A stretch of DNA of 64,000 bases from a virus (Duplodnaviria; Heunggongvirae; Uroviricota; Caudoviricetes): IMG/VR virus record IMGVR_UViG_3300017917_003521; one strand, 5' to 3'. The position numbers and the translations under genes were made by a program. Every line of letters begins with the position of its first letter. Position 1 is the stretch's first letter. The notes beneath the pieces are model-generated. The model was not told the origin of the DNA. It saw only the letters and a program-made list of their open reading frames with translations, and did not search any database. Below, in pieces: positions 3,033 to 54,292 of the stretch.

Positions 3033-3998
3033 ATGATTAAAAGATATTTAGACTTTGTAAAAGAAGATTTTAATGGATTTCATTCACTTGGTGAGTGGAT
3101 TGAATCATTGATAGATGATGAGTATGTTAGAAATATAGTAGCTCGTTATACAAAAGATTCAGATGCTTCTATTGACTTATCTAATGCTATTAATATCTTA
3201 GATGATAAGACCAAAAATGAAATTAAATATCAAATTGATAATTACTTACAAAATGGCATTGAAGAGAAAGAACCTCAATTTTTAGTATCTACTGACATTG
3301 AGCAATTAACAGAAGCATTAGCCGATGAAATTACAATTGCTGGTAAAGGTATATTTACATCTTTCTTAAAGTCATTAACCAGTTTGGGTCAGAAAGAAAG
3401 TCAACCTTCCTTTGAAAAATGTCCAGAAGACTTCTTATTATACTATCATTATCCAAATCTTCAATCTGAAGTAGTTAAACAAATATTTTCAAGATTTAAA
3501 TCACTAACAAGATATATTGATTTAGTTGATTATCAAAAAAATGAAGTTGATTTATACTTCGGTGTTAGATGTGATGGTGAGTTTGAGTATGGACTACATT
3601 ATGATAATAATCAACCAATTGGTAGATTCAAATTATCACAGTCTACAATTAAGTGGATTTGCCAATTAGATTCTAAATCAGCTTCTTCTTTAAAAAAAGA
3701 ACTAGTTAATTTAACATATGCTGATATCATAACATTTGGTAAGATTAAATCAGATATGTCTTCATTTCAACCTGGTTATTTTGAAAAGAAATTATCACCA
3801 ACTATAAAAGATAGAGTTATATCTTTTGGATATTACGGTATTGGTAGATGGGATAATGGTAAATTAGACGAAGGTGAGTTTCAGAATATTAAAAATAACT
3901 TCACTACTTGGTTACTTTCTAAGAGATGGGGTAGTAAAGTTTTAATAAGTGTTAAACCAATGTCCTTTTGGGTTTATCTACACATAAAATTAAAATAA
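3033..3998 (+). CDS. hypothetical protein (N-terminal MIKRYLDFVKE motif family)
   Basis: 321-aa ORF. Its N-terminus resembles the K-[KR]-[FY]-x-x-F-[IV]-KE motif shared with the ORFs at 8995-10500(-) and 26168-27097(-). Confidence 0.45.
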   Translation: MIKRYLDFVKEDFNGFHSLGEWIESLIDDEYVRNIVARYTKDSDASIDLSNAINILDDKTKNEIKYQIDNYLQNGIEEKEPQFLVSTDIEQLTEALADEITIAGKGIFTSFLKSLTSLGQKESQPSFEKCPEDFLLYYHYPNLQSEVVKQIFSRFKSLTRYIDLVDYQKNEVDLYFGVRCDGEFEYGLHYDNNQPIGRFKLSQSTIKWICQLDSKSASSLKKELVNLTYADIITFGKIKSDMSSFQPGYFEKKLSPTIKDRVISFGYYGIGRWDNGKLDEGEFQNIKNNFTTWLLSKRWGSKVLISVKPMSFWVYLHIKLK

Positions 3999-4000
3999 CT

Positions 4001-4462
4001 ATGAAACATTTAAAGAAATTTGAAAGTTTAGGACTTATTAAAGATTGGAATTTACTTTTATCTGATGAGGATTTCAAAAAGAATGCTGAGGAGTTTGACA
4101 GTATTGTTGAAGCTTATATTGAATATGCTCAAGAGGGTTATGAAATATCATTTGAAACTGCTTATGGTACAAGAGTAATCATTTCTTGGAATGACTATAA
4201 TAGTAAAAATGAAAAGTATCAAGAATTTATACACGGTCTTGGAGCTAGAGGTTTCTTCTTTACATCAAAGATAAAATTACCTTATGATTATAGTAAACTT
4301 CAATCTCTTTTAGAAGATGTTCAAAGTTGTGTAGATAGATTAAGTGATATGGGTTGGATTTTAGTTGAATTTAAAGTTATTGGAATATCACCTGATAATA
4401 AAATAACACATAGTGAATATAACCCGTCTCATATCAGGGTTGAACATGAATTTAAAAAGTAA
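4001..4462 (+). CDS. hypothetical protein, MKHLKKFESL N-terminal family
   Basis: The track ORF is 3968-4462. The internal ATG at 4001 gives MKHLKKFESLG, matching the N-terminal motif of at least 8 other ORFs, so the start was moved there. Confidence 0.45.
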   Translation: MKHLKKFESLGLIKDWNLLLSDEDFKKNAEEFDSIVEAYIEYAQEGYEISFETAYGTRVIISWNDYNSKNEKYQEFIHGLGARGFFFTSKIKLPYDYSKLQSLLEDVQSCVDRLSDMGWILVEFKVIGISPDNKITHSEYNPSHIRVEHEFKK

Positions 4463-4472
4463 TATATACATT

Positions 4473-4784
4473 ATGAAATACTTAAAGAAATATAATGAAA
4501 ACTCAGAACAACAAGATCCTATTTTTGCTATAACAAAGATTAAGGAAAACTTTAGCAAAGAAGAGGTTCAGGAAATGCTGAATAAAGAAATTGAACAATG
4601 GACACCGGAAGAAAAAGACTTTGATTTTTATACAAGTTCTGGTAATGGCGAAGCTGAAGATGTTATTATAAATCAAATGATTTCTTGGTTTGAGAAAAAG
4701 TATTATTCTCTATCCGATGAAAACTCAGAAGAAGTTAAACAACTGATTCTAAAAGAATATGAGTTTCTAAACTTTAACTATTAA
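4473..4784 (+). CDS. hypothetical protein, MKYLKKYNEN N-terminal family
   Basis: Internal ATG at 4473 of track ORF 4413-4784. The family motif sits at the N-terminus and an intrinsic terminator follows at 4795-4830. Confidence 0.45.
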   Translation: MKYLKKYNENSEQQDPIFAITKIKENFSKEEVQEMLNKEIEQWTPEEKDFDFYTSSGNGEAEDVIINQMISWFEKKYYSLSDENSEEVKQLILKEYEFLNFNY

Positions 4785-4830: not shown

Positions 4831-4831
4831 T

Positions 4832-5302
4832 ATGAAACAGCCAAGTAAAGAAGATTTAATAAAAAAATGGGCACCTATTTTAGGGTCTATGGGTATGACT
4901 GGTTCACAATTAGATAATTTATCACAGTTAGCCGAAAATCAGTCTAATCAAATATTAGAAGAAGAAAATAAAACTGAAGAGTTTCCAAGTTTATTTCCAA
5001 TGGCTATGAAAATCTCAGCAAAAACTATTGGAATGGATTTAGTATCCGTTCAACCAATGACTGGACCAGGTGGAATGTCTGAAGAAGAAAGAAAAAGAAT
5101 TGAAGCTGAAGTTAAACAAGAGAATCGTGATTCTAAAATTGACGCTTTAGTAGAAGGAACTGAATACAATGAAAAGAAAGTAGAAGACCATCCTGATTAT
5201 AGACCTGGTAGTGGCGGTCAATTATTTTATATGGATTATACATATGGTTCCACACATAAGAAAACAAGAAGAAGTAAAAAGAAGAAAAATGGCGGTATTT
5301 AA
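4832..5302 (+). CDS. hypothetical protein
   Basis: 156-aa ORF directly downstream of the terminator at 4795-4830. Confidence 0.4.
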   Translation: MKQPSKEDLIKKWAPILGSMGMTGSQLDNLSQLAENQSNQILEEENKTEEFPSLFPMAMKISAKTIGMDLVSVQPMTGPGGMSEEERKRIEAEVKQENRDSKIDALVEGTEYNEKKVEDHPDYRPGSGGQLFYMDYTYGSTHKKTRRSKKKKNGGI

Positions 5303-5474: not shown

Positions 5475-5503
5475 TGAAAACATGATAGAGTAATATATAC
5501 TCT

Positions 5504-5839: not shown

Positions 5840-5884
5840 ACTAAAAACATCATTTAATATATAAATAAAAAATATTTTTCAAAT

Positions 5885-8591: not shown

Positions 8592-8998
8592 TTTTAATTA
8601 TAGATGAAAAGATTATTGGAGAAGTAAACAAGGTTTTATTAACATCAACACTTGGTGATAATTATGTTACAGTTATTGTTAGTTGTGATGATAGTAAAAA
8701 ATTTTTCCTTGATTGGTTAGATTTTTATTCTAAACAACCTGCTAATGTATTTGATGAAAAAACACTCATTATATATGATGAAGTTTATGATAACTTAATA
8801 ACAATATATGACTCTTATATTAAAGAGATTTTGAAATCTTATACAGATTGGTTTGGTAAAAAATTTGATAACATGTTTGAAATACATGTTGGTTACAAAG
8901 ACTTTGAAGAAAAAAAACCCAGAGGTGAATCTGAGTTTTATAAAAATATCTATAAATCTTATTTAAGAGATAAAAAAATCAATCAAATCATAAATTAA
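8588..8998 (+). CDS. hypothetical protein
   Basis: Internal ATG (MILIIDEK) of track ORF 8540-8998, overlapping the upstream stop by 4 nt (ATGA). Confidence 0.4.
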   Translation: MILIIDEKIIGEVNKVLLTSTLGDNYVTVIVSCDDSKKFFLDWLDFYSKQPANVFDEKTLIIYDEVYDNLITIYDSYIKEILKSYTDWFGKKFDNMFEIHVGYKDFEEKKPRGESEFYKNIYKSYLRDKKINQIIN

Positions 8999-10500
8999 CA
9001 TTCGTTACAAGAGTAATCGCCTCGACCATCGCAGCTTGAACATTCAACATCACCGTTTCCTCTACACTCACCACAAGTGACATTACCAGAACCTCCACAT
9101 TCACCACATTCAATTTCATTTCCTTCTTCGTCTTCACCTAGATTACCAGATCCATCACATTCACCACATTGAACATTACCATCACCACCACACTCGTTGC
9201 AGGAATGTTCACCACTACCATAACAGTCACTACACTCTTGTCTACCAGAACCTCCACAATATTCACAAGTACCAATGTGACCACCCCCAGTATCTTCTAG
9301 TGTAAGACCTCCATTATCTATGTTTGATAATATACCATTTCCTTCTTGAAAGTACTTTAATGTATCTAAGTAAGGATAGTTACTGTAGTATTTCTTAGTA
9401 AGAGTAACTTTTAAATTCAAATCAGCCGTAGATCCATCCGGTGCAATTGTTCTTCCACTATCAGTACTACTGTTGTGAAATTTTACATACCAACCATTTT
9501 CTTTAGCGAAGTCTCTATATAATTGAACATCTGAATCGTTTATAGTATAGATTCTATCTAAGAATTTTTTACCATCATCTAACGTCCATAATAATGCTCT
9601 TCCTACAATTTTTTCATCGTCATCTTGAGATTTGAAAATTACTAGACTAACTTGTTCTGGATTTTCTGTGTAAATTTCTAACCAAGATTCGCGAGCACTA
9701 GCCATACAAGAAGAACCTAAAGTTCCTCTTCTTTCATAGTATGTATTACTATTATACCAATAATGAATATCACTACCTTTAACAACATGAAAGTAAGAAA
9801 ACTTATCATTCAATTTATCGATAGTTGCTTTGAAAAGATTAACAAATGCTTCATAATCTTTATCTTGAACATCTGTAACACCAGCCGCTCTTAATATTGC
9901 TCTAGCTCCTCTGCCAACTTTAATATCTTGTCTGTTTTTCGACCAAACTTCTCTCATTAAAGCAGATACTGAGTCAATTAGTCTTAGTTTATCTTGATTG
10001 TAAACACCTTGTCCTATTTCAACTCCTTCTTTATCTGTACCTTGACCACCTTTCCATTTAATCCAAAAGTATGTTTTACCTGATGATTCAGATGTTACTT
10101 TAGCAACCACTTCACCTATATCTCTTGAGTTAGGTTTGTATGGTTCAGAACCTTCTTCATAAGTATAACCTAATTTACCAAAAATACTATTATTTGAGTC
10201 TTTATGTTTTAACCAACCACCACCTGATCCTGTAAATCTATATTCTTCTTTAACTTGACCTAATATTTCTTGTGCCTTTCTATCGGGAATAAAATTTAAA
10301 CTATCATTTTTATCCAATGTTATATCAAAATAATTTGACTGAACTGGAACATCTTTGTTTTCAATTTCAAGTAATTTTTTAGCTATTGGATTTTCAATCT
10401 TAGCTAATGCTCTTCTTAATTTTTCTGAATAAACTACATTAGACTCTAACAAAAGATACTCTAGTGATTCGTTTATAAAATTGGAATATTTCTTAATCAT
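8995..10500 (-). CDS. protein with C-terminal array of ~8 DnaJ-type CxxCxGxG zinc-finger repeats; N-terminal MIKKYSNFINE family motif
   Basis: The C-terminus 'CEYCGGSGRQECSDCYGSGEHSCNECGGDGNVQCGECDGSGN...CGECGGSGNVTCGECRGNGDVECSSCDGRGDYSCNEC' is a run of CxxCxGxG units. The N-terminus carries the family motif. Confidence 0.5.
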   Translation of the reverse strand: MIKKYSNFINESLEYLLLESNVVYSEKLRRALAKIENPIAKKLLEIENKDVPVQSNYFDITLDKNDSLNFIPDRKAQEILGQVKEEYRFTGSGGGWLKHKDSNNSIFGKLGYTYEEGSEPYKPNSRDIGEVVAKVTSESSGKTYFWIKWKGGQGTDKEGVEIGQGVYNQDKLRLIDSVSALMREVWSKNRQDIKVGRGARAILRAAGVTDVQDKDYEAFVNLFKATIDKLNDKFSYFHVVKGSDIHYWYNSNTYYERRGTLGSSCMASARESWLEIYTENPEQVSLVIFKSQDDDEKIVGRALLWTLDDGKKFLDRIYTINDSDVQLYRDFAKENGWYVKFHNSSTDSGRTIAPDGSTADLNLKVTLTKKYYSNYPYLDTLKYFQEGNGILSNIDNGGLTLEDTGGGHIGTCEYCGGSGRQECSDCYGSGEHSCNECGGDGNVQCGECDGSGNLGEDEEGNEIECGECGGSGNVTCGECRGNGDVECSSCDGRGDYSCNEC

Positions 10501-10571
10501 TTCAACTATGTTATATTTTACGGATATAAGTATATATTAAATATATAAAGTACAAAAAACAATTTATTATT

Positions 10572-11052: not shown

Positions 11053-11257
11053 TAAAAGATTTATCAGTCGTAAAAATTTAGAAATAATAGCTGAACAAGG
11101 TTTAGATAGTTTGATTAATTATATAATTAAACCGGATGCTCTTATAATAGAGTCTGATGGTATTTCAGAAAAAGTTTGTGATATTGTAGGTAATACAAAA
11201 GATAAAAAAGAAATTAAGAAAAAATTAAAAGAAATAGGATTCTATGAATTTGAATAA
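11042..11257 (+). CDS. hypothetical protein
   Basis: 71-aa ORF. Confidence 0.35.
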   Translation: MGFNKRFISRKNLEIIAEQGLDSLINYIIKPDALIIESDGISEKVCDIVGNTKDKKEIKKKLKEIGFYEFE

Positions 11258-11954
11258 AAACTACTATAGTATTCTTGGTGTTAAAAATACCGATGATGAA
11301 AAGACTATTAAAAAAGCTTATTATAAATTATCATTCACTAACCACCCTGATAAAGGTGGTGATGCTATTCTTTTTAGTGAGATGACAGAAGCATACGATA
11401 TTCTTTGTAGTGATAATAGAAAAGACTATGATTTAAAAAGTAAATTTGGAAATAACTATAACGAATATTTTGAATTATTTGATGTAAATATTGATTTTGA
11501 TTTTGATAAAGAAAAGTCAAATTTTGAAAAGTTTAAAAAATATGAAGTTAATGATATATATGTAACCATTGATGACAATTTTAATGGTTCATTAGAATAT
11601 GAGAGATGGGTAAAATGTAAAACTTGTGATGGTACTGGAAAAGACTTATCTGCAAAAATTGTTATTAAAGATAATGATGGTAATATTTTAAGAACTTTTG
11701 ATGCTGATGATGGATGTGATTTTTGTGAGGGCTCTGGTAAAGACTATAAAGGAGAAACTTGTAATTTTTGTCAAGGAGCTGGCAAAGTAGGACTAACACC
11801 ATGTAAAAAGTGCAACGGTGAAAAAAGAATATTAGGTAAACAAAAATTATCTGGAATTAAGCTAACAGGTGATGAGACTAAAATAGAATCAATGGGTAAC
11901 TGTTCTAAAGATGTTGTAGGAATGGTTGGATCTCTTATTCTAAAGAGAGGTTAA
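11244..11954 (+). CDS. DnaJ-like co-chaperone (J domain with HPD plus CxxCxGxG zinc-finger repeats)
   Basis: 'YYSILGVKNTDDEKTIKKAYYKLSFTNHPDKGG' is a J-domain with the HPD motif. It is followed by 'CKTCDGTGKD', 'CDFCEGSGKD', 'CNFCQGAGK' and 'CKKCNGEKR'. Confidence 0.65.
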   Translation: MNLNKNYYSILGVKNTDDEKTIKKAYYKLSFTNHPDKGGDAILFSEMTEAYDILCSDNRKDYDLKSKFGNNYNEYFELFDVNIDFDFDKEKSNFEKFKKYEVNDIYVTIDDNFNGSLEYERWVKCKTCDGTGKDLSAKIVIKDNDGNILRTFDADDGCDFCEGSGKDYKGETCNFCQGAGKVGLTPCKKCNGEKRILGKQKLSGIKLTGDETKIESMGNCSKDVVGMVGSLILKRG

Positions 11955-12875: not shown

Positions 12876-15800
12876 TTAAGATTTTTCAAATTTAACATCT
12901 AAATTTGTATAATCAACCCAGTAGAATCCATCTTTAATTGATAAAGAATTTTCAAATTTAGTTCCTAACAATTCTTGTGCAATAACACCTCTAAATCTAT
13001 TTTTGTTATTAACATAATTCCACTCATAGATATTTATACCCATTAGACTTAATCCAACTTTCACAATATTTTCTTTCAATCTTATATCAGAGAAGCCGCC
13101 ACTTCCTACAGTTTCATTTGAGAAAAGAAAGTTAGTGTTATTTGTCTCATATAAAGCTGTATTACCAACACCAGCACCTACACCACCTACGCCTAATCCA
13201 ACACCACTAACTACGGTATTAGAATTTTGTGTACTTATACTGTCAAGGCCGATAGATATATTATTTATAAAACTAAAGTTTTCATTACTATAATCAATAA
13301 ATGGCGATATACCCTGGAATGGAACTTGAACTCCTTTATTTATATTATCTTCTGTGAAATATTGGAAGAAAGGAATCATATCAACTTCATAAAAATGTAA
13401 GTTATCTATGTAATACTCATTTTTAGTAGTAGTATTAGAACTTAAACCTTGGAAATTCATTGATAAGTTTCTCTTATTATAAAAATATTCCATTTTTTTC
13501 TTCTTATTAGTTGTTAAGTGATTTACGTTTTTATAAACTGGTAAATATGTAGCATCTGTTCTAAAGCTAAAAGTGAGTCCGGATAGACTTATACTTCTAT
13601 ATGTATAGTTTAAATTATCAAAATGTATAAATGGTGTATAAATAACTGCAAACTTTTTAGTAACATCAGTGTAAAGTGATGTGTTATTAGTAGAGTATGT
13701 AACTAGATCAAACTCTACTTTTGTGTATCTTAATTTTTTTATTTCCTCATTTGTTCTATTATTTACATCATCTGCAGGATTAGGAACTATATCTAATATA
13801 CCACCTCTACTCATTGATGTTACTTTTAATAGATTTCCTGTATCTTCTTCAGAGTTTGATGATACTCTCGAAAAATCTATAAATGTTGGAGAAACACTTG
13901 AGTATGTCCAACCTTGATTTAAAAATACATCACTATTAAAAGTAGATACAACTCCTGAGGTTAGTCCATAAAATGCAGTAAATACACCACCAAAATCATC
14001 TTCAAACAGACCAGCATCACCTATATAATCATCAAATATTTTATATTTTGTTCCTAATTTATATTTTCTTATAGTTGTTGAAAAACTATCTCTGAATGTT
14101 GATGAACTTTCAAGTACATCATTTGTTACATAACCATATAGGTTATTTTCAGAATAACTTCTCTTTGAAACAGAGTTTAATACACTTTGAGGTTTCCCTA
14201 TATTAGTTGCAGAGGTATTATCAAATACCACATCTAACCAAGAATTGTAAACAAATACAGCATTACTTTCAGCAGATACATTAGATGTTACTTTTGAAAT
14301 GTTATTTGATTTGAAATCTATATTTTGTATTAAACCTTTTGATAGATTAACTGTTATTTGACCACCTTCATTTAAACTATCGCTACCCCAATCTTGATCT
14401 ATTACTATTTGATACGGATTCACAACCTGTGTTACAATATGTTCACCATCATATTGTGGATTTACATCTTTGTCAGTCTTGTCAATAATTATCACATCAC
14501 CAACAGATAAACCGTGAGGTACACTATTTGTTCCAAATTGCAAACCAACAGAACCTGAACTGAATATAGTATCTACAAATGGTGGTACTGTATATTTTTG
14601 AGAATAGAAATGTCCACCATCAAATACACCATCTATCCAATGTGAGTTATACATTTCAGTTATCAAAGGATATCCTTTAAATAAACCGTAATTCCAAATA
14701 CCTTTAAAGTATCCATTTAAGAAACCACCAGATAACCAAACATTTTTTGTAACATATATTCTGTGATTATCAGAGTCTCTTTCAATTCTTCTTAAAGGAA
14801 AATTATTATCAAACTCAACAATAATACTATTTGTTGTTTTATTTATTATAGTGTAATATCCTTTTATAAGCTTTCTATCCTCATTAATATCTATTGATAC
14901 TATATTAGAAATTGAAACATTATCTCCGATATTGAATTTAGACACAGACGATTCTGGTCCAATAATTTGAACTCTCCATCTTTTAGATTTATTATAGTTA
15001 AAGAATAATGAAACATTTGTAAATTCATACATATTATCATCTACTCTCCATCCTGTATTCCAAACACCATTTTCCCATATACCTGCTTTAAATGAACCAT
15101 TTCCCATTTTTGAGTATATTTTACTAATACCTGGATTGTATAATGATGCGGTTGCATTTATAGTATTACCTGTTCCAACTAAAGTCGAGTATGCTACATT
15201 TGATAGACCGGTCGCTATTGAATATGTTGGTGCGTTACTCATAACATATTGTCTATTGTTTCCAGGATGGTATCCACCTTCTATTTTTATATTAGATAAA
15301 TATATAGAAGAATATGTAGGACTTGAAGATGTAGCACCAGCGAATCCACCAACAAATAATATGTATTTATTTCCTCTTAGACCATAAAATGCATGAGATA
15401 TAGAAGAAGTCAGAGATGTAGCACCAGTTGATGAAACACTTTGTGTTAATGTCGCTAGTAACGTAGCACCAGTTGGTGGTGTGTATACTCCAGATTGCAA
15501 AGCTACCCAGTCCGGATCAGATAAAACAGGTGCGTTTGATGTGTATATTCTCAATGGAAAGTTTCCATTATTTTGATAACCAAAAGAAATATTATAGTAT
15601 GTATAAGGTATGAATTTATATAAACCATTATTCAACCTATACCCTATTCTTGATGCTTTAGCACCGTTTGGACCACCAACAGGAAAATAACCTCTTACAC
15701 TAGCACTAGCACTAGTTGAAGGTGTTCCATAAACATAATCATACCAGTAGTATTTATCTGAGTTTTTGTCATAATACCAACCAAGTGAATTTTTAACACT

Positions 15801-20666: not shown

Positions 20667-20713
20667 TTAAATTAGTAAAGTATTTTATGTATATATTATT
20701 TATTAAAGGTTTC

Positions 20714-25007: not shown

Positions 25008-26117
25008 TTATTTTTTAAATTCTTTTTTGTCATTAGAAATATAGAAATTATCAAAGTTGTAGTATTTTTCATACACCTCTTTAACTTTTTTCATATTAAC
25101 CTCATCTAAAATGTCATACACAGACCAACCTTTAGGATTGATATATTGATTAACATTTTTATATCTTAGAATTTCATCTTTTTCCATTCTTACTTTATAG
25201 TAGTCTTTTACAAGATTAAATCTGTCTTTAGTCAGATACTTTTCAGGTTTTGTAATAACTTCTTTTACTGAATCAACAACAGCATTAAAGTTCTTGTTAG
25301 ATGTTTGAGTAGCAATAGTGTTGATACCTTGTTCATTCATTCTACTTTGATAACAATGAACATAGTATACTAAACCTTTCTTTTCACGAATATCTTGATA
25401 AAGAGGTGACATCAAACCAAGTGATAACATAGCATTAATGTAATGAACATAAGCAAAATCTTCTTCAATAACTGGTGAAAGAATAGCAATAGACGTTTTA
25501 TCTTTGAAATCATTATTTAATTCTAATGGAACTTTATGGTCACCAAAAGCTATATTTTTAACAATTTTTCTTTCTGCAAAGTCTAAAGAATTATTTTTAT
25601 ACTTTTTATTTTTTGAAACATTGATAATTTTTGTTGGCTTAGCATATTGAAGTTCAAAGAAGTTAAGACAATCCATGAACTTCATAGACTCTAAATCTTG
25701 TTTTAATCCAATTGGATCGTAATCTCCAAATAGTTTACGACTAAGATTTAACATATGTGACTGTGATTGGTCATTGAAACAATCCATATATTCTTCAAGA
25801 ACAATATTTCTTTCATTTTCAAACTGTTCTTTAGTAACATTGAATTCACCAAGTAAGTCCATAAACTCACCTTTCCACTTATTTACTTTTTCATCAAGTC
25901 CTGTTAAATAAAAAACGATTTCGTTATTTGAAGTGTAGGCATTCCAGTCAATACCATCTCTATCAAAATCTTCTTGAAGATGATCAAAGTTTTTACACAT
26001 TAAATGTTCCATTAAATGGCTAATGCCATACCAACCTTTTTTCTCAAGGTTTGTTGAACCTTCATAAACTACATAAAAACCAGAAAGGTCTGTTTGAGAT
26101 TTTAAATTTACTATCAT
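25008..26117 (-). CDS. M16 (pitrilysin/insulinase)-family metallopeptidase-like protein
   Basis: Inverted zinc motif HxxEH in 'GISHLMEHLMCK', with a downstream Glu in 'ENERNIVLEEY' about 70 residues later. Confidence 0.55.
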   Translation of the reverse strand: MIVNLKSQTDLSGFYVVYEGSTNLEKKGWYGISHLMEHLMCKNFDHLQEDFDRDGIDWNAYTSNNEIVFYLTGLDEKVNKWKGEFMDLLGEFNVTKEQFENERNIVLEEYMDCFNDQSQSHMLNLSRKLFGDYDPIGLKQDLESMKFMDCLNFFELQYAKPTKIINVSKNKKYKNNSLDFAERKIVKNIAFGDHKVPLELNNDFKDKTSIAILSPVIEEDFAYVHYINAMLSLGLMSPLYQDIREKKGLVYYVHCYQSRMNEQGINTIATQTSNKNFNAVVDSVKEVITKPEKYLTKDRFNLVKDYYKVRMEKDEILRYKNVNQYINPKGWSVYDILDEVNMKKVKEVYEKYYNFDNFYISNDKKEFKK

Positions 26118-35568: not shown

Positions 35569-36666
35569 TTAACCAACGGTCAAGAAGATTTTACGGGACA
35601 TTCTATCCACTGAAAGAACTTTCACTTTGATATCTTGTCCTTGTGAGAACCTTTTACCAAGTTTTTCCATTTCTGAAGTGTGGATAAGACCAACAGTTTC
35701 GTCATCAAGGTTCACTAAAGTGCCAAATGCTTTGGTGTCTTTAACAGTACCTTCAATGATTTGACCATTTTTAATTGTGTCCCACAGGGTCTCTCTCAAG
35801 ATTTGAGTAAGGATAATTTTATCCTTAATAACCTCTTTAATGTAGAATTCAATTTGGAATCCTGGTGAGATTGAAGATAACTTCTCAGCCCAGTCTGGAT
35901 TAACATTTGCTTTATGGATCATTCCAGTTAAGCACTCATTGAACTCAACAAAGACACCAAATGGAGTTGTACCGGTAACGTGACCACTGTACACTTTGTT
36001 GTACTCCAATTCCTTAATTGCTTCAGGAATTAAAGTTTGAAGATACTTACGTCTTGAAACGATATAAGTTCCTTCGTTTTGGGCATAAGATTCAATCATA
36101 ACATTGAATGTTTGTCCAACAATTGAGTTAGGATCGTGAAGCTTGTTAATACCAGCAAGTGTATTTGGCATAAAGCCTGGTAATGTTACACCACCGTGTG
36201 TTAACTCAACATCATAGCCAGCTGGGTTAAGACTCTTAACCGTAACCATTACTGATTGACCTTCTTCTAAGGATTTTAAGTTAGCGTGTGCTCTTGACTC
36301 ATATAGAGAAGAAACACTTCCTTTAATCATAAAATTATCTTGATTAATATCAGTGATTAATACATCAATTAAGTCACCTAAATTAAGGTTCTTGAAGTAC
36401 TTAGATTCACTAACTCTATCCTCTATTCTAACGTCATCTTTGTATCCTGGTACACTAAATATAAATTGGCCTGCTGACTTACCAACATATTTAGCAGATA
36501 CAACTTGACCTTTCTCAGGGATTGCAATTTCATCAAGGTTATAAAGCTTTAGCATTTCTTGATACTCTTTTGTGTTTTTGTTTCGAGTACCTTTTTTTGA
36601 AAATTTAACTTCTTCAAAGACGTCCATTAAATCTTCATTACCGATTGTGTTTTTTATCATATTCAT
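35569..36666 (-). CDS. ribosomal protein S1-like protein (four S1 RNA-binding domains)
   Basis: Repeated S1-type OB folds, e.g. 'GQVVSAKYVGKSAGQFIFSV' and 'GQIIEGTVKDTKAFGTLVNLDDETVGLIHTSEM...GQDIKVKVLSVDRMSRKIFLTV', parallel the S1 repeats (G.v.G.V....GaFV.l.....GLvH.Se). Confidence 0.55.
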   Translation of the reverse strand: MNMIKNTIGNEDLMDVFEEVKFSKKGTRNKNTKEYQEMLKLYNLDEIAIPEKGQVVSAKYVGKSAGQFIFSVPGYKDDVRIEDRVSESKYFKNLNLGDLIDVLITDINQDNFMIKGSVSSLYESRAHANLKSLEEGQSVMVTVKSLNPAGYDVELTHGGVTLPGFMPNTLAGINKLHDPNSIVGQTFNVMIESYAQNEGTYIVSRRKYLQTLIPEAIKELEYNKVYSGHVTGTTPFGVFVEFNECLTGMIHKANVNPDWAEKLSSISPGFQIEFYIKEVIKDKIILTQILRETLWDTIKNGQIIEGTVKDTKAFGTLVNLDDETVGLIHTSEMEKLGKRFSQGQDIKVKVLSVDRMSRKIFLTVG

Positions 36667-45145: not shown

Positions 45146-45235
45146 GTTTTTAATCTGTTGATTTTTTATTATATATTAAATTCTACTCATTTCTTTAATA
45201 TTTGTTTTTAGTAAATTATTTCTTATATTTGCTAC

Positions 45236-45502: not shown

Positions 45503-47326
45503 ATGATTGAACAACTAAAAGCGCAAATTATTAAGGCGAATGATGCCTATAGATTGGGTGAACCAATTATATCAGATGCTAAATACGACCAATTGGTTGA
45601 GGAATTAGCACTATTATCTCCAAATGATGAGCTATTAACCAAAGTCGGTCACGTTGTAGCAGACGAATCTCGTAAAAGTAAACTTCCTATTGAGATGGCT
45701 TCAATGAATAAGATTAAGTCAATGGAAGATGTTGAAGATTGGTGCCGTCTTAAAGGTATTTCTAAGTCTGAATATGTAGTTATTACACCAAAATTTGATG
45801 GTCTCTCATTATGTGTTAATGAGACTACATCAGAGGCTTGGACTCGTGGTGATGGTGAGTATGGTCAAAAATCAAGCGAACATTATTCTTTGATTCAAAA
45901 TCATCTTAATTTAGATGAACAATCATTTTCTTTTACTTATGGTGAGGTAATGATGCCTAAGCAGGTATTTGTTGATAAATATTCAGCAGACTTTGCTAAT
46001 CCTCGTAACTTAGTGGCTGGTCTTTTGAATTCAAAAGAACCTAGTCAATCTTTGAAAGATTGTCAATATATTAAATATGGTGCAATCTGTAATAAGAACT
46101 TTTCAACTAAACAAGAATTATTAAACGAACTTAATATTGGTCAGAGTGTTAAAGTTCAATATCATATCTGTAAACTATCTGACCTTGATGAAGATTTACT
46201 AATTCAATTGTTTCATCAGTACTCAACTGATTATGAAATCGATGGATTAATTATAGAGTTAAATGATCTTAGTTTACAAAAGCAATTAGGTCGTGAAACT
46301 TCATCTAATAACCCTTGCTATGCAAGAGCATTCAAACATCCAAGTTTTGAACAGTCCGCTGAAACTGAAATCATCGGTATTTCTTGGAATATTTCTAAGC
46401 AAGGCTATCTAAAACCAACACTACATATTAACCCTGTTCGTTTAGATGGTGTTACTGTGTCTAATGTAACTGGTAACAATGCTCGTTTTGTAAAAGACCT
46501 AGGAATTGGAGTTGGTGCAAAAGTTGTAGTAAAGAGAAGTGGTATGGTTATTCCCATTATTGCTGATGTTATTACACCTGTTGAGTTTCAAATGCCTAAC
46601 GTTGATAATATCGACTGGAATGAGAATGGTGTTGAGTTAGTAACTCTTGTTGAAACTGACGACCAAAAACTTAAAAAGATTGTTGCCTTCTTTGAAATCC
46701 TAGAAGCAGACAATGTGTCAGAAGGCGTTATCACTCAACTTTGGGAAGCTGGTCACAAAACAATCAAAGATATTCTTAATCTTAAAAAAGAAGATTTAGA
46801 AAAGATTGACCGTTTTGGAAAACGTAAAGCCGAAATCGTCTATAACTCAATTCAAAAATCTATTACTGGTGTTCAACTTTCTAAAGTTCAACACGCTACC
46901 GGTATCTTTAAAGGTCTTGGTAGTAAGAAACTGGCTTTACTTGAACATTTCACAACTAAACCAAGTTTAGACCAAGTGATGTCTATTGAGGGATTTGCTG
47001 AAGTTTCTGCTAAATCATATATTGATAGTTATGATGTGTACTTTGACTTTGTTAAAGACTTACCAATCACTATTGAAGAAAAAGTAAAAGCTGTTGCTGT
47101 TGGAACCGACCTAGAAGGTAAACAATTTGTATTCACCGGTGTTCGTAGAGCTGACTTGGAATCAGTTATCGAATCTCGTGGTGGTAAGATTGGTTCTGGT
47201 GTTAGTAAAAATACAACACACCTTGTGATGAAATCTGTTGGTTCTGGCTCTTCTAAAGAAAAGAAAGCAATTGAATTAGGAGTTGAAGTTATTACTGTTG
47301 AACAATTAGAAAATTTATTAGCATAA
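45503..47326 (+). CDS. ligA: NAD-dependent DNA ligase
   Basis: Adenylation motif KxDG in 'VITPKFDGLSL', LigA-type N-terminus 'AYRLGEPIISDAKYDQL', and a C-terminal BRCT 'KQFVFTGVRRADLESVIESRGGKIGSGVSKNTTHLV'. Confidence 0.85.
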   Translation: MIEQLKAQIIKANDAYRLGEPIISDAKYDQLVEELALLSPNDELLTKVGHVVADESRKSKLPIEMASMNKIKSMEDVEDWCRLKGISKSEYVVITPKFDGLSLCVNETTSEAWTRGDGEYGQKSSEHYSLIQNHLNLDEQSFSFTYGEVMMPKQVFVDKYSADFANPRNLVAGLLNSKEPSQSLKDCQYIKYGAICNKNFSTKQELLNELNIGQSVKVQYHICKLSDLDEDLLIQLFHQYSTDYEIDGLIIELNDLSLQKQLGRETSSNNPCYARAFKHPSFEQSAETEIIGISWNISKQGYLKPTLHINPVRLDGVTVSNVTGNNARFVKDLGIGVGAKVVVKRSGMVIPIIADVITPVEFQMPNVDNIDWNENGVELVTLVETDDQKLKKIVAFFEILEADNVSEGVITQLWEAGHKTIKDILNLKKEDLEKIDRFGKRKAEIVYNSIQKSITGVQLSKVQHATGIFKGLGSKKLALLEHFTTKPSLDQVMSIEGFAEVSAKSYIDSYDVYFDFVKDLPITIEEKVKAVAVGTDLEGKQFVFTGVRRADLESVIESRGGKIGSGVSKNTTHLVMKSVGSGSSKEKKAIELGVEVITVEQLENLLA

Positions 47327-51300: not shown

Positions 51301-51872
51301 TGTTATCTTACCAAGATATTTTAAATCTTATTAAAGAATCTGATTTCACACTTGTTGGTTATACCTTCAAGGATGAAAGAATTAAAGATGAATTACTTTC
51401 TAATTTTAACTATGTTGAGATTGAAAAAGTCAATTCGTCTTTTTCTTTTAAATCATTTTTAAGAGACCTTAAACTAGAATCTTTATTAGAAAATAAGTCT
51501 GTAAAAAATCCAGAGTATATTCTTTTAGATATTAATAATATAAGATTTGAAGAAAAGGATAGTTTAGGTGGTAGACAAAGAGTTATTAGAAGTTTTGTTG
51601 AAAATCTTAGAAGTCAATTATATACAGATTATTCTGAATTTCCTGGAAGTTCTCAATTTAAAGTTATTCTAACATCTTCTTTATATAGAAGTGGTGTAAA
51701 TTCTAATAATGATGGTATTAATAATTTCAGTGGGGGAAGTGGTCCAATTTATTCTTCTGATTTAGCTTTGACTATAATTGATAATAAGATTACAATAATC
51801 AAGAATAGATTTGGCAACAATGGTGATGAAATAGTATATAAATTTCAAGAAAATTTAACTACATTTGCATAA
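51300..51872 (+). CDS. hypothetical protein
   Basis: 190-aa ORF. Confidence 0.4.
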   Translation: MLSYQDILNLIKESDFTLVGYTFKDERIKDELLSNFNYVEIEKVNSSFSFKSFLRDLKLESLLENKSVKNPEYILLDINNIRFEEKDSLGGRQRVIRSFVENLRSQLYTDYSEFPGSSQFKVILTSSLYRSGVNSNNDGINNFSGGSGPIYSSDLALTIIDNKITIIKNRFGNNGDEIVYKFQENLTTFA

Positions 51873-52306
51873 TGAAAATTACAACAAATAGAAAAGCATA
51901 TTACGAGTATTTTGTGTTGGAAGAATTCAACGCAGGAATTATGCTATTAGGTAGTGAAGTTAAATCTATTCGTGATGGTAACGTAACCATTACAGACTGT
52001 TTTGCTTATATTTCAAATGGTGAAATTTTCGTAAAGAATATGAAAGTTGCTAAATACAAACAAACTCATATTTTTGAAAAGCATGATGAAAATCGTGATA
52101 AAAAAATTCTTCTTAATAGAAAAGAGATAGATAAAATAGAAAAACTTTTACAAGATAAAGGTACAACTATGGTTCCTTTAGAAATATTTACCTCACATAA
52201 TAGAATCAAAGTTAAGATTGGTGTTGTAAAAGGCAAGAAGCTATACGATAAAAGAGAAACTATTAAAAAGAGAGATATCGAAAGAGAAATCCGCCGTAGC
52301 GTCTAA
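51872..52306 (+). CDS. smpB: SsrA-binding protein SmpB
   Basis: 'NRKAYYEYFVLEEFNAGIMLLGSEVKSIRDGNVTITDCFAYISNGEIFVKNMKVAKY' matches the SmpB N-terminal core, and the C-terminal basic tail is present. Confidence 0.75.
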   Translation: MKITTNRKAYYEYFVLEEFNAGIMLLGSEVKSIRDGNVTITDCFAYISNGEIFVKNMKVAKYKQTHIFEKHDENRDKKILLNRKEIDKIEKLLQDKGTTMVPLEIFTSHNRIKVKIGVVKGKKLYDKRETIKKRDIEREIRRSV

Positions 52307-52309
52307 TAT

Positions 52310-52678
52310 ATGCCTCGTAAACCAAAAGATATTGGTCCTTTATTGGATAAGTTAAGTAACTCATTTACTGAAGAAGATATACTCAGTTGTCTTATAGAAC
52401 TTGTAAAAGGTTACGAACCATATAAATATAGAGAGATTATTTATAATAATCCATATTATAAATCTTTAATACCTGATATACAGATTGATATAATTAATAA
52501 TTTAGAAGACGTTAAAAAATCAATAGTTAAAGAAATTGATCAGATTGAGTCAGAACTTAAAAAGATTGGAAACAAAGATTCATCTGAGCAACTAAAAAAT
52601 CTTAAAAAAGATTGTTTATCATTGATATATGAAATAGATGAAAGGAAAAAAGAAATAGAAATGTTATCTAAGTATTGA
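52310..52678 (+). CDS. hypothetical protein
   Basis: 122-aa ORF. Confidence 0.4.
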   Translation: MPRKPKDIGPLLDKLSNSFTEEDILSCLIELVKGYEPYKYREIIYNNPYYKSLIPDIQIDIINNLEDVKKSIVKEIDQIESELKKIGNKDSSEQLKNLKKDCLSLIYEIDERKKEIEMLSKY

Positions 52679-54292
52679 ATCTACATATCTTTCTAAGTCT
52701 TTAAGTTTTACCATATTCTCAGCTGTTCTCTTATCACCTTCCTCATATGAGTTAATATAGTATTGAATATCCTCTGGATAATGAAATTCATTTATAATAC
52801 TTCTTAAAGTTCCTGAAATTTCAAACTCATTAGTTCTTGATATTTTAAGAATAGACTCTAATTTTATAAGAATCATTCTTAAATCTTGAATTGTTTCAAT
52901 TTTCTGATTTTTTAAGTATGTTAATATTTTTTCACTTATTTTATTTACAGATTTAAATTGTTCTTTTATCTCAGGCGAATCACACTTTTCAATTAAAGAA
53001 ATACACTTTTGATATCTATTCGTGTAATCCATACTATTAGAATATAATCTTTTATATCTACTCTTAGCTTGTTCTAGATAGTACTTTTTATCTTCTATTA
53101 ATTCACTTCTAATAGAATTATATAAATTACCTAATATATACTCAGTTTCTTCTAAATTAGGTCTTGATTTGAATATAGAGATAAAGGCAAACTTACCACA
53201 AACATTCTTTATAATAATATTTTGCAAATCTTTAATTTCAGCAGTATCTATATTTATAGTTTTAGAAACAACTTGTGTTAAATATCTTTCTATATTTTGA
53301 CTCTTTATTTGCTCATCAGACATTAAACCTAAGGCGCCTTCCTTAGACTCTTCTCTTCCTTTTTTTGTCAAAGAAACAGGAGTTAATCCGGATTTTAATA
53401 AATCATCTATAGTTAAAACAACAGCAAAATCGGCTTTATCTATATCTTCGCTACTGCTAATTGACCAATCATAATCACTCCAACTTCCATAAGTAAATCT
53501 TGAATTTGATGGTAAGTTATAGTCTAAAGGATTTTCTGAATTTTCTTTTTTAACTTCTAAACCTTCTACCTCAATTGGCTCATCGGATGGTATATAGATG
53601 TGTAATTTATGATGGTCGCTACCTGGTGAATGAACACTATCAAGTGACCAAGAATATCTAAACTTATCACCATCTAACCACTCTCTCCAATTTACATTAT
53701 CTACATCATAATCTGGTTCTCCTCCACCTGCAACATTTTGAATAGCAAATATTTGACTTCCATCTCTCCAAAGTTTAGCCATTGCTAATCTACTCATATC
53801 ATCTGAATCATCTGAAAAAATACCAAAAATAATTTGACCGTGTCTTAAATCTTCGTAATTCTTTAATGGTTTTAATAAACCTGTTTTGACACCTAAATCA
53901 TTCTTAATATAATCTAACTCTTGTGAACTGAAAATATCACCACCACTTCTCCTTCTTCTATCCATTGACTCTCTGTAGTTTATAACTTTATTACCAGTGA
54001 CAGTGAATCCTAAATATCCTTTCTCTATTGAAAACCAAAATTTAAGACAGTATATACCTTTTGAGTTATTCACTTCTTCGGTATTTTTAAGTTTTAATGC
54101 CTTGAATCTATTTACATACTTAACATTTTCATCTTTTATATCACTGATAGGTATATCAAGTTCCTGTTGCATCTTTAATAGTTTATTCTTAAATCTATCA
54201 ACCGATTGTTTATCTACTTTAGTTTTAAGATACTTAATAACTTTAGAAATTGTAGATGACTCAAAAGCCTCGTATAATTTTAGATATTTCAT
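52664..54292 (-). CDS. hypothetical protein (542 aa), MKYLKLYEAFESS N-terminal family
   Basis: N-terminal family motif on a long ORF. Confidence 0.45.
   Translation of the reverse strand: MKYLKLYEAFESSTISKVIKYLKTKVDKQSVDRFKNKLLKMQQELDIPISDIKDENVKYVNRFKALKLKNTEEVNNSKGIYCLKFWFSIEKGYLGFTVTGNKVINYRESMDRRRRSGGDIFSSQELDYIKNDLGVKTGLLKPLKNYEDLRHGQIIFGIFSDDSDDMSRLAMAKLWRDGSQIFAIQNVAGGGEPDYDVDNVNWREWLDGDKFRYSWSLDSVHSPGSDHHKLHIYIPSDEPIEVEGLEVKKENSENPLDYNLPSNSRFTYGSWSDYDWSISSSEDIDKADFAVVLTIDDLLKSGLTPVSLTKKGREESKEGALGLMSDEQIKSQNIERYLTQVVSKTINIDTAEIKDLQNIIIKNVCGKFAFISIFKSRPNLEETEYILGNLYNSIRSELIEDKKYYLEQAKSRYKRLYSNSMDYTNRYQKCISLIEKCDSPEIKEQFKSVNKISEKILTYLKNQKIETIQDLRMILIKLESILKISRTNEFEISGTLRSIINEFHYPEDIQYYINSYEEGDKRTAENMVKLKDLERYVDSILR

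Follow-up and report, generated by a model that had tools for sequence, protein, structure and literature searches.

Two short N-terminal tags on unrelated proteins of a Mahaphage-type megaphage, one resembling the T4 capsid-targeting sequence

Tagged genes of the window and their promoter-like motif

The window is a 64,000-nucleotide stretch of DNA (IMGVR_UViG_3300017917_003521). It derives from a Mahaphage-type megaphage of Bacteroidetes and runs colinear with the 290-362 kb region of the complete genome LR745206 (634,780 bp); genome G+C is 29%. Nine of its genes start with one of two short peptide tags (Table 1): six with tag A (consensus MK[HY][LI][KR]x[FY][EN][ES]) and three with tag B (consensus M-I-K-[KR]-Y-x-x-F-[IV]-x-E-[SN]). 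The first-pass annotation had listed these nine N-termini, and all nine start codons and peptides are present in the sequence; it had described a single shared motif, where we find two distinct ones. A tenth, degenerate candidate, MKFIKQIFEFVES, was absent from its list. The orthologue of this gene (LR745206 361812-362258) lies within a run of five tagged genes.

Table 1. Tagged genes, the promoter-like motif copies ahead of them, and two neighboring genes in the window
Feature	Position	Strand	TAATATATA copy ahead	Tag and remarks
Tag B protein, 321 aa	3033..3998	+	3020..3028 (+)	MIKRYLDFVKE; tag MIKRYLDFVKED encoded at 3033-3068; sequence verified
Tag A protein, 153 aa	4001..4462	+		MKHLKKFESL; start 3 nt past stop codon of 3033 gene
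Tag A protein, 103 aa	4473..4784	+	4460-4468 (+)	MKYLKKYNEN
Capsid-protein paralogue, truncated, 156 aa	4832..5302	+		Adjoins three tagged genes; gp23-type N-terminal propeptide and N-arm kept
Tag B protein, 501 aa	8995..10500	-	10531-10539 (-)	MIKKYSNFINE; MIKKYSNFINESLE
Tag A protein, 89 aa	23683..23952	-	23976-23984 (-)	MKHIKKFESF; motif 23 nt upstream
M16 zinc peptidase (HLMEH)	25008..26117	-		Pfam Peptidase_M16 and M16_C
Tag B protein, 309 aa	26168..27097	-	27221-27229 (-)	MKNKLKKYSDFIKE; MKNKLKKYSDFIKES; tag offset by three residues
Tag A protein, 153 aa	34585..35046	+	34550-34558 (+)	MKHLQKFEAF
Tag A protein, 159 aa	35043..35522	+		MKHLNRFNES; start overlaps stop codon of 34585 gene
Tag A protein, 542 aa	52664..54292	-	54297-54305 (-)	MKYLKLYEAFE; MKYLKLYEAFES
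Candidate degenerate tag, 143 aa	62570..63001	-	63006-63014 (-)	MKFIKQIFEFVES; motif at 4-nt spacing

The 3033 gene has a 66% identical orthologue in LR745206 (290120-291082) that keeps the tag as MIIKKYIKFIKEN, and the 4473 gene a 53% identical one (291084-291374) that begins MKYLRKYNES. The 4473 ATG lies 4 nt after the end of its promoter-like motif; an in-frame ATG is also present upstream, at 4446. No syntenic orthologue of the 4001 gene and no orthologue of the 23952 gene was found in LR745206, and the site syntenic with the 27097 gene holds a different tagged gene, starting MIYLRLFESH. Pfam and PHROG searches with the 321-aa protein and with the 153-aa protein encoded at 4001 gave no match. 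The truncated capsid-protein paralogue was aligned against the capsid proteins of six relatives; its match to Pfam Gp23 (E=9.7e-5, residues 52-90) is slightly under the curated cut-off, and its orthologue is at LR745206 291407-291880.

The promoter-like motif TAATATATA occurs 17 times in the window, against 4.8 expected. In LR745206 it lies ahead of 33 of the 71 tagged genes and 111 of the 828 untagged genes (odds ratio 5.6, p=2e-10), among them the portal, protease-scaffold and tail-tube genes. It is also found before tRNA genes, a tRNA-synthetase-like gene and an SbcC-like gene, and so is not strictly a late promoter. Tag starts lie 4 nt after promoter-like motifs, behind leaders of 16-30 nt, or within operons; no Shine-Dalgarno sequences are visible. 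The 35043 start is operon-internal, so the tag is not tied to the mRNA 5′ end.

Abundance and conservation of the tags

Tag A is found on 54 and tag B on 17 of the 899 genes of LR745206; tagged genes make up about 8-12% of genes, and about 1 in 8 within this stretch. The two tags co-occur, with runs that reach 15 of 33 genes. Taking chance expectation from the position-specific N-terminal residue frequencies of untagged genes, 0.016 tag A cases are expected among the 75 genes of the window and 6 are observed, and the N-termini of the window as a group exceed chance about 400-fold; for the 899 genes of LR745206, 0.19 are expected and 50 Met-anchored cases observed. Of the window's 2,177 ATGs, 6 fit the pattern MK[HY][LI]..[FY][EN], each at the head of a long ORF, and [LIVM]K[KR][YF]..F[IVL].E has three matches in its six-frame translation, all N-terminal. 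Over the 193,152 aa of LR745206 the tag A core is N-terminal 54 times and internal 6 times, the tag B core 17 and 9 times; the internal counts are at chance level (compositional expectations 3.3 and 8.4), and N-terminal enrichment is 50-400 times. Both tags are thus real and restricted to N-termini, and selection maintains them at the peptide and not the DNA level.

Both tags are confined to a single viral clade. MKHLKKFE-encoding DNA was found at 50 viral loci, nearly all with homologues common to LR745206, and tag B at 75, of which 68 have such homologues; 596 Gb of cellular genomes yielded 12 matches to MKHLKKFE-encoding DNA, mostly spurious.

The tags are among the best-conserved segments of the two families examined by alignment. 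In the 501-aa tag B protein an unknown domain precedes eight DnaJ-type CxxCxGxG zinc fingers. The protein has over 1,000 homologues, none named; all of the 59 that were aligned (55-90% identity) have Y5 and F8, and 58 of them have E11. The family of the 542-aa tag A protein (120 homologues, 33-100% identity) keeps its N-terminus as MK[YH]L[KM]L[FY]EAF[EQ]S. In AlphaFold2 models the tags have pLDDT of 40-53 beside confident domains: about 50 for residues 1-19 of the 501-aa protein and above 80 for the domain that follows, and below 50 for residues 1-9 of the 542-aa protein and about 85 for the remainder. The 542-aa protein matched no solved fold. Conserved yet predicted to be unpacked, the tags have the character of a linear motif recognized by a partner.

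Comparison with the T4 capsid-targeting sequence

[quoted passage not shown] In the IPIII signal, targeting needs positions 4 and 7 and processing needs positions 8 and 10 (PMC9026906). The T4 record has MKTYQEFIAE in IPII and IPIII, and MKTFKEFTST at the start of IPI. Tag B reproduces the four mapped residues as Y-x-x-F-I-x-E. When a matrix built from megaphage tag B alone was scored over 15,185 T4 positions, IPIII ranked first and IPII second, and the gp23 maturation site FLTE|A (Glu65) was also recovered; tag B matches the T4 signal quantitatively. Like the T4 signals, tag A has Lys at position 2, a hydrophobic residue at position 4 and an aromatic one at position 7. It is without the T4-type [LI]-x-E cleavage site, and its matrix recovered neither T4 IPI nor the scaffold.

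The clade has a T4-type portal, a gp21-like protease-scaffold fusion and a gp23 capsid protein, with matches for the portal (5e-23), terminase (4e-50) and capsid protein (Pfam Gp23, 1.8e-26). The protease-domain profile matches T4 gp21 (PDB 5JBL) at 5e-7, with His72 and Ser127/128 invariant in seven sequences; the single-protein Pfam match (E=0.005) is under the curated cut-off. The homologue in phage PTm1 is annotated as prohead core scaffolding protein and protease. These head genes are those of relatives and do not lie in the window; by synteny, this phage would have them too. The clade scaffold has at least 10 tandem 14-residue repeats, YSEY[LI]AENLDKNI, and provides 5 of the top 18 internal matches of the tag B matrix (169,778 positions); the capsid-protein propeptides conserve [IML]-x-E-N, e.g., SINEN. 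Tag B resembles both scaffold and propeptide. The reverse test with a scaffold-repeat matrix is weak, N-termini being enriched only 2-2.6 times.

The first-pass annotation had read the shared N-terminus as a possible capsid-targeting sequence. This is supported for the genes starting at 3033, 10500 and 27097, by Y-x-x-F-I-x-E, the tag B matrix and the T4-type head genes; for the six MK[HY]LK.FE proteins, with no [LI]-x-E and a matrix that misses T4 IPI and the scaffold, support is weak.

Both the T4 CTS and the megaphage tags are N-terminal peptides, 10-19 residues long, whose cargo proteins evolve fast and are otherwise unrelated; in both, position 2 is Lys, position 4 aromatic or hydrophobic and position 7 Phe. 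Tag B additionally shares F-I-x-E, with Glu at the cut site. Both groups have the gp20, gp21, gp22-like and gp23 head system. Non-homologous tagged genes swap between relatives at fixed sites, between conserved flanks, and T4 internal-protein genes likewise turn over at fixed sites. The differences are several: a megaphage genome has at least 70 tagged genes and T4 about 3-6; tag B stands one residue out of register (M-I-K-K-Y versus M-K-T-Y); the megaphage has the second tag without an [LI]-x-E site; its cargo is mostly acidic and includes enzymes; and its protease and scaffold are one fused protein, the scaffold with tandem 14-residue repeats.

Interpretation of the tags

The reading we favor, with a probability of about one half, is that these are short peptide sorting tags on unrelated cargo, tag B being a cleavable CTS and tag A a second tag. 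We infer docking, cleavage, packaging and ejection as follows. Through its amphipathic Y..F face, tag B would attach cargo to the scaffolding core while the prohead assembles; a cut after the Glu of [IV]-x-E would follow, made by the gp21-type protease, which is fused to the scaffold in this clade; and the cargo, freed inside the capsid, would be ejected with the DNA into the host. Tag A is the commoner tag, and because the two co-occur its destination is probably the same as or related to that of tag B. The setting of the tagged genes fits this reading: they favor the promoter-like motif that the portal, scaffold and tail-tube genes also have, some adjoin the truncated capsid-protein paralogue, and their products are soluble, membrane-like segments being found in 1 of 71 of them and in 74 of 828 untagged proteins.

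Some observations run against packaging. The share of about 8-12% of genes far exceeds every known packaged-protein set, T4 having about six proteins with such a signal, and the tagged proteins are acidic (median pI 5.0). T4 IPII and IPIII are basic. The CTS-bearing internal proteins of T4 relatives are described as basic (PMC9026906).

That the tagged proteins are so numerous and acidic fits a cytoplasmic role better, and the tags, mainly tag A, could be genuine sorting or recognition peptides for a non-capsid partner: for M16 peptidase processing, hand-off to the chaperone-like J-domain and zinc-finger proteins of the phage, timed degradation, or targeting to an intracellular assembly. Tag A has neither the T4-type cleavage site nor similarity to the scaffold, and the gene of an M16 peptidase that looks active (HLMEH) lies between tagged genes; in a set of 50,697 phage records M16 is found only in five Mahaphages, the largest, of at least 634 kb. 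The M16 family includes mitochondrial presequence peptidases, and [KR]-x-[FY] followed by E/N/S is loosely like the presequence R-3 motif. Speculatively, M16 could be the enzyme that processes the tags instead. Mitochondrial presequences are, by analogy only, likewise short, basic, amphipathic N-terminal tags on many unrelated proteins; they differ in greater length, degeneracy and richness in Arg. Nothing implies an import machinery in the megaphage, and a link to the phage M16 would be conjecture. We consider a non-capsid partner possible but rather unlikely: it has no known precedent in phages, LR756501 and LR756504 encode M16 but have few canonical tag A genes, and tag A shares genomes and gene runs with tag B, which clearly matches a capsid signal.

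The nine had also been called a gene family, and tagged proteins might be highly diverged paralogues of one ancestral gene of which the N-terminus alone is recognisable. There are a few small sub-families (one with four members, one with three, eight pairs), and some tag A proteins have a further common stretch, ...F.EL.D.GF, seen by eye. The family does not hold together, however: 80 tagged proteins with their first 14 residues trimmed fell into 67 BLAST clusters, of which 57 have a single member. The proteins are 63-663 aa long, 72 of 81 tagged proteins have no Pfam domain, and tag B is carried by such unrelated folds as an RNA ligase, a DHH phosphoesterase, a 2H-phosphoesterase fused to an exonuclease, and the zinc-finger array. 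The tag appears to be an add-on to its cargo: residue 25 of the tagged RNA ligase aligns with residue 8 of untagged T4 Rnl1, so about 17 residues are extra. Common descent of the tagged proteins is therefore very improbable.

We give still less credence to a nucleotide element with no peptide meaning, a by-product of AT-rich codons or of leaderless initiation without Shine-Dalgarno sequences. The 29% G+C, the lack of visible Shine-Dalgarno sequences, the many starts 4-6 nt past the promoter-like motif and the slightly AT-richer codons of L4 and F7 would suit it. Synonymous codons at tag positions otherwise vary at background rates (AAA 78% versus 74%, CAT 80% versus 71%), and the tags occur equally at leaderless-like, leadered and operon-internal starts. 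AT-biased codon usage had been set beforehand as the test of the motif, which withstood it: the related and equally AT-rich Bacteroidetes phages PTm1 and Lak-B5 have the motif in 0 of 61 and 0 of 45 genes. With the chance expectations and the few cellular matches given above, this reading is largely refuted. Hardly to be credited either is a mobile regulatory cassette of promoter and 5′ coding stretch, conserved as DNA and shuffling small genes by recombination on the model of the promoter-stem-loop cassettes of T4-type phages (PMC2839356): tagged genes are replaced between conserved flanks and many have TAATATATA ahead, but the 9-mer is on only about half of them at variable spacing, and the tag-coding part is unconserved at synonymous sites, leaving too little identity for homologous exchange.

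Sorting tags on packaged cargo have partial parallels outside T4. Phage P1 DarB has an N-terminal packaging signal (PMC9024508), a short stretch that by itself brings a large anti-restriction protein, or a reporter, into the capsid, from which it is delivered into the host; the Dar proteins differ in having no common consensus and no T4-type scaffold, and in being a single cargo set rather than bearers of a genome-wide tag. The giant phages phiKZ, 201phi2-1 and SPN3US have propeptides on head and ejection proteins (PMC5694885). Their prohead protease is gp21-related, like that of the megaphage, and cleaves after Glu, as is proposed for the latter; many of their internal or ejected proteins carry N-terminal propeptides, and the paralogues gp53 and gp54 have an identical 15-residue N-terminus. 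They are a different lineage without a gp22-like scaffold, and their propeptides are mostly over 100 residues, with no common decapeptide and a cleavage logo of A/S/G-x-E.

Since one tag closely copies the T4 capsid-loading signal, these megaphages may, if the favored reading is true, pack and inject dozens of different proteins.

Two N-terminal peptides on unrelated proteins

Nine window proteins carry one of two conserved N-terminal peptides of about ten residues, tag A and tag B. The first-pass annotation had described them as a gene family with a single shared motif. All nine N-termini are present exactly as it reported, but they follow two separate patterns, and beyond the tag the nine proteins have no mutual similarity; none has a Pfam or PHROG match. 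An ordinary paralogous family can be set aside, since similarity along the proteins outside the motif was not detected. Once 14 residues were removed, BLAST placed 80 tagged proteins of the window and of its complete colinear relative LR745206 in 67 clusters, 57 of them singletons.

The sharing of N-termini is real, and much larger than first reported. Tags begin at Met1 or, for some tag B cases, 1–3 residues in. A loose tag A pattern matches 6 of the 2,177 window ATGs, every one a true gene start, and tag B has three matches in the six-frame translation, all N-terminal; position-specific N-terminal residue frequencies of untagged genes predict 0.016 tag A starts in 75 genes. LR745206 (634,780 bp) was taken whole, with 899 ORFs called at a minimum of 50 aa. 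Among its 193,152 residues the tag A core is found 54 times within the first eight residues of a protein vs. 6 times elsewhere, and the tag B core 17 times N-terminally vs. 9 times elsewhere. The internal counts match compositional expectation (3.3 for A, 8.4 for B), and several of these matches, at residues 5–24, are probably real starts where the ORF caller had gone too far upstream. By the N-terminal counts about 8% of the genes are tagged under strict patterns, and more by eye.

Could an AT-rich genome produce such N-termini by codon bias? Composition does not explain the tags: none was found in 61 genes of Tenacibaculum phage PTm1, which has 29.5% G+C and a Bacteroidetes host, or in 45 genes of the AT-rich phage Lak-B5. 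Synonymous codons within the tag are used at genome-background rates (AAA for K2, 78% vs. 74%; CAT for H3, 80% vs. 71%; AAT for N8, 78% vs. 81%), with a mild A/T excess only at L4 and F7. Tagged starts lie 4–6 nt past a promoter-like motif, past leaders of 16–30 nt, or overlapping the preceding stop codon (4001, 35043). Background codon use and this varied placement point to conservation at the peptide level rather than to a DNA element, and the tags are very probably peptide-level sorting or recognition signals. No description of these two motifs was found in the literature searched.

The promoter-like 9-mer, TAATATATA, has 17 window copies vs. 4.8 expected, and is loosely similar to the T4 late promoter TATAAATA. 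Its spacing to the ATG falls into two classes, 4–6 nt and 16–30 nt, the shorter of which suggests leaderless mRNAs. It precedes 144 of the 899 LR745206 genes, including those for portal, protease-scaffold and tail tube, and is enriched ahead of tagged genes (33/71 vs. 111/828 untagged; odds ratio 5.6, p=2e-10); it also precedes tRNA genes, as at the window tRNA array, and non-structural genes. Host-type TAnnTTTG motifs are somewhat depleted ahead of tagged genes (5/71 vs. 128/828 others, p=0.056). A 48-aa ORF that starts 5 nt past a copy of the motif extends in another frame over the start of the tagged 27097 gene; it is perhaps a small gene upstream, coupled to the tagged one in translation.

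Distribution among relatives

The window (29% G+C) holds about 75 tightly packed genes, none with Shine-Dalgarno sequences; Bacteroidetes-type TAnnTTTG elements stand ahead of some. Megablast found as relatives only three metagenomic "uncultured phage" genomes of 634–642 kb at about 74% identity, which are the Mahaphage genomes with predicted Bacteroidetes hosts (Al-Shayeb et al., 2020; PMC7162821). For 44 window genes there is a best match in LR745206, nearly all colinear within its 290–362 kb, at 29–84% amino-acid identity. Four large fibre-like window proteins are likely tail fibres or adhesins. Several of the Lys and Trp tRNA calls are 83–88 nt, unusual for these isoacceptors, and may hold insertions or be mis-assigned.

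Features of the window and of LR745206, with motif patterns
Feature	Location	Strand	Remark
Tag A, M-K-[HY]-[LI]-[KR]-x-[FY]-[EN]-[ES]	window starts 4001, 4473, 23952, 34585, 35043, 54292		
Tag B, M-I-K-[KR]-Y-x-x-F-[IV]-x-E-[SN]	window starts 3033, 10500, 27097		27097 offset by three residues
Tenth, degenerate tag candidate	window 62570-63001	-	
TAATATATA copies	window 3020-3028, 4460-4468, 5491-5499, 5855-5863, 22596-22604, 34550-34558, 55887-55895, 57065-57073, 57844-57852		
TAATATATA copies	window 10531-10539, 20690-20698, 23976-23984, 27221-27229, 45170-45178, 54297-54305, 63006-63014	-	
48-aa ORF	window 27069-27215	-	
Truncated major capsid protein paralogue, 156 aa	window 4832-5302	+	ortholog LR745206 291407-291880
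501-aa protein	window 8995-10500	-	
Divergently oriented neighbour of the 501-aa gene	window 11244-11954	+	
M16 (insulinase/pitrilysin-type) zinc peptidase, HLMEH	window 25008-26117	-	81% identical to LR745206 ortholog
Fibre-like protein, 689 aa	window 945-3014	+	Laminin_G_3 domains
Fibre-like protein, 1,126 aa	window 12876-16256	-	S74 intramolecular chaperone domain
Fibre-like protein, 1,450 aa	window 16314-20666	-	pentapeptide-repeat match below Pfam cut-off
Fibre-like protein, 550 aa	window 58792-60444	-	collagen repeats
SPFH/Band-7 protein, 637 aa	window 31056-32969	+	host-like function
S1-domain RNA-binding protein	window 35569-36666	-	host-like function
NAD-dependent DNA ligase with BRCT	window 45503-47326	+	host-like function
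SmpB (tmRNA partner)	window 51872-52306	+	host-like function
tRNA array, ten genes	window 56165-57007 and 58007-58080		Phe x2, His, Trp x2, Lys x4, Arg
Protease-scaffold fusion, 707 aa	LR745206 198546-200669 (L067:2546-4669)		
83-aa protein of three scaffold repeats	LR745206 460435-460686 (L072)		
2H/Acb1-like phosphoesterase fused to DEDD exonuclease	LR745206 448257-449573	-	tag B cargo
DHH phosphoesterase with winged helix	LR745206 105634-107625	-	tag B cargo
T4-type RNA ligase 1	LR745206 470485-471747	+	tag B cargo

DNA encoding MKHLKKFE was found at 50 IMG/VR loci, all of 22–36% G+C; 49 of these matches begin real ORFs (59–287 aa) for diverse proteins, and nearly all of the loci encode homologues of LR745206 proteins. 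The same pattern had 12 matches among genomes of bacteria and archaea totalling 596 Gb, mostly in very short ORFs, and the real ones lie on AT-rich contigs of metagenome bins with a viral look. The tag B pattern was found at 75 viral loci, 68 of them with LR745206 homologues, on equally diverse cargo of 56–756 aa. Both tags occur together on the same viral contigs, and tagged genes form runs (15 of 33 genes in locus L044, 9 of 22 in locus L028); in LR745206 a tagged neighbour is present for 27 of the 71 tagged genes vs. 10.6 expected. At syntenic sites, between conserved flanks, tagged genes without homology swap for one another.

In the more distant genome LR756501 (735 kb) tag B is frequent and tag A is replaced by variants such as MIKKFKLFE, and few strict matches to tag A lie around the capsid-protein genes of LR756501, LR756504 and LR756500; tag form thus varies by lineage. 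A search of 50,697 phage records turned up no cultured member with tags. The closest relative in culture to be identified was PTm1, with a capsid protein 29% identical, and its 50-kb region examined has no tags. The tags are clade-specific peptides, of two kinds, on unrelated proteins.

Cargo and candidate partners

The tag is conserved yet apparently not packed against the protein that bears it. The 501-aa window protein has more than 1,000 unnamed homologues; in 59 aligned ones (55–90% identity) Y5 and F8 never vary and E11 is kept in 58. Even members of the 542-aa family with overall identity as low as 33% retain MK[YH]L[KM]L[FY]EAF. In AlphaFold2 models that are confident elsewhere the tags are low-confidence ends: residues 1–19 of the 501-aa protein have pLDDT of about 50, with a helix predicted at 2–16, and residues 1–9 of the 542-aa protein fall below 50. 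The tagged LR745206 RNA ligase matches T4 Rnl1 (1e-23) with its residue 25 aligned to ligase residue 8, so that its tag is an extra stretch of about 17 residues. Strong conservation combined with a lack of intramolecular packing, as these models suggest, would be expected of a short motif that a partner reads.

Few of the tagged proteins contain a known domain. Besides the tag B enzymes listed in the table, these include a Toprim-like protein, also with tag B, a NUDIX protein and an M15 (cell-wall) peptidase; the 2H-exonuclease fusion had no match in a PDB sequence search. Several of these enzymes could plausibly serve in counter-defence, delivered ready-made. Tagged proteins are soluble, a membrane-like segment being found in 1 of 71 vs. 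74 of 828 untagged LR745206 proteins. At its end the 501-aa protein carries eight DnaJ-type CxxCxGxG zinc fingers. Its divergently oriented neighbour has a J-domain-like start, MNLNKNYYSILGV, and weak similarity to the zinc-finger region; the two could form a split DnaJ-like chaperone pair. Fold searches of the PDB gave no significant match for the 501-aa model (weakly GNAT-like, E=0.03) and helical-repeat noise only for the 542-aa model.

The reading partner might lie outside the capsid. The M16 zinc peptidase, found among the 50,697 phage records only in five Mahaphage genomes of at least 634 kb, is conceivable as an alternative processing enzyme, particularly for tag A. The acidity of tagged proteins (median pI 5.0 vs. 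5.7 for the rest) would suit a role outside the capsid. The M16 gene does not follow tag A cleanly across genomes; near that of LR756501 there are many tag B genes together with MI[KR]KFK[LI]FE variants.

Head machinery and proposed capsid targeting

The clade has T4-type head genes, including portal (5e-23), terminase (4e-50) and a Gp23 capsid protein (Pfam, 1.8e-26), and also sheath, tube and gp4; these were seen in LR745206 and viral contigs of the clade, outside the window, and are predicted for the window phage by synteny. Directly upstream of the capsid-protein gene is that of a 707-aa protein, whose PTm1 homologue is annotated "prohead core scaffolding protein and protease". A profile of seven relatives matches its N-terminal domain to T4 gp21 (PDB 5JBL, 5.1e-7), with His72 and Ser127/128 unchanged in all seven; the single-sequence Pfam match has E=0.005, below the curated cut-off. 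Homology, the His and Ser residues and synteny together point to a Peptidase S77 like the T4 gp21 prohead protease. The rest of the protein is scaffold and contains, in tandem, at least 10 copies of a 14-residue repeat, YSEY[LI]AENLDKNI, each with an [LI]-A-E site. The 83-aa protein of three such repeats may be a small prohead-core protein. The peptides MIKKYSNFINESLEYL, MKHLKKFESFSVKE and MKYLKKYNENSEQ are candidate substrates for the protease domain (residues 1–170).

At first pass the shared N-terminus was said to resemble a capsid-targeting sequence such as that of T4. In the T4 record, internal proteins IPII and IPIII begin MKTYQEFIAE and IPI begins MKTFKEFTST. In IPIII the main determinants of targeting are residues 4 and 7, and those of processing are residues 8 and 10; Asp at 10 stops processing with targeting unaffected (PMC9026906). 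The T4 signal occupies the extreme N-terminus (10–19 residues), and the tags are likewise N-terminal, with internal matches at chance. Its Y4 and F7 correspond in the same register to [LI]4 and [FY]7 of tag A, and at the same i/i+3 spacing, shifted by one, to Y5 and F8 of tag B; all four mapped residues are identical and identically spaced in the Y-x-x-F-I-x-E of tag B. The T4 processing site is [LI]-x-E, cut after Glu (I8 and E10 in IPIII). Tag B has [IVL]-x-[ED] in 17 of 17 cases, with E in 15, and scores like the gp23 site, whereas tag A lacks this site and has [FY]-[ND]-E or [FY]-E. The T4 signal, like the tags, sits on unrelated, fast-replaced cargo, and T4-related phages have poorly conserved internal proteins with similar targeting sequences (PMC9026906).

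A matrix built from megaphage tag B only was scanned over the 15,185 positions of 69 T4 ORFs, and its two best matches were the signals of IPIII (first) and IPII (second). Further matches included FGSFLTE/A of gp23, in which Glu65 is the maturation site of the 65-residue propeptide (PMC5694885), and [LIV]-x-E sites of gp22 and gp67. The tag A matrix found neither IPI nor the scaffold. The resemblance to T4 is clear for tag B and weak for tag A. We consider tag B somewhat more probably than not a cleavable T4-type capsid-targeting sequence; that tag A goes to the same destination is possible but rather doubtful.

Among internal matches of the tag B matrix, the scaffold accounts for 5 of the best 18 and 12 of the best 103. 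The reverse scan, with a scaffold-repeat matrix, gave N-terminal enrichment of only 2–2.6-fold, and for this weakness we hold mimicry of a scaffold repeat by tag B as a moderate hypothesis only. Tag A had no scaffold match in its top 300; its mimicry of the capsid-protein propeptide (A/L)MKKW was dropped, that segment ranking 795th of 184,162 positions. Across the clade, the capsid-protein propeptides share WMSEYAE...[IML]-x-E-N (SINEN is one case), in agreement with the FINE[SN] end of tag B. In the window the truncated capsid-protein paralogue comes next after the genes at 3033 (tag B), 4001 and 4473 (both tag A), in an order conserved in LR745206. The paralogue keeps the gp23-type propeptide (KKWAPIL...) and N-arm FPMAMKISAKTIGMDLVSVQP and then diverges; it could be a decoy or capsid-directed carrier.

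On this reading the shared N-termini would be a greatly enlarged version of T4 capsid targeting, with a second type of tag. In its full form, to which we give a probability of roughly 0.3, two decapeptides would send some 70–100 different proteins, 8–12% of the proteome, into the capsid for co-injection, as a packaging code readable from sequence; tag A would then act as a novel targeting signal that does not undergo T4-type cleavage, and tag B would mimic one scaffold repeat. The packaged cargo would include enzymes that could plausibly counter host defences, namely the 2H-exonuclease fusion, the DHH phosphoesterase, the RNA ligase, the NUDIX protein and the cell-wall peptidase. We know of no precedent for at least 70 cargo species per genome.

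Tag B is close enough to the T4 signal for test in the existing T4 packaging system, and could extend protein-delivery tools to Bacteroidetes phages. Should the capsid reading fail, the presence of both decapeptides, well conserved, on some 70 viral proteins without relation to one another would still suggest an undescribed recognition system. What is known of huge phages comes from metagenomes alone, and only a minority of their genes have been given a function; a tag marking a common fate would annotate about a tenth of these genomes at once. Were the full reading right, sequence alone would suffice to list the proteins that uncultured giant phages inject. Such a tag would show which proteins reach the host with the DNA, and would explain part of the need for very large capsids.
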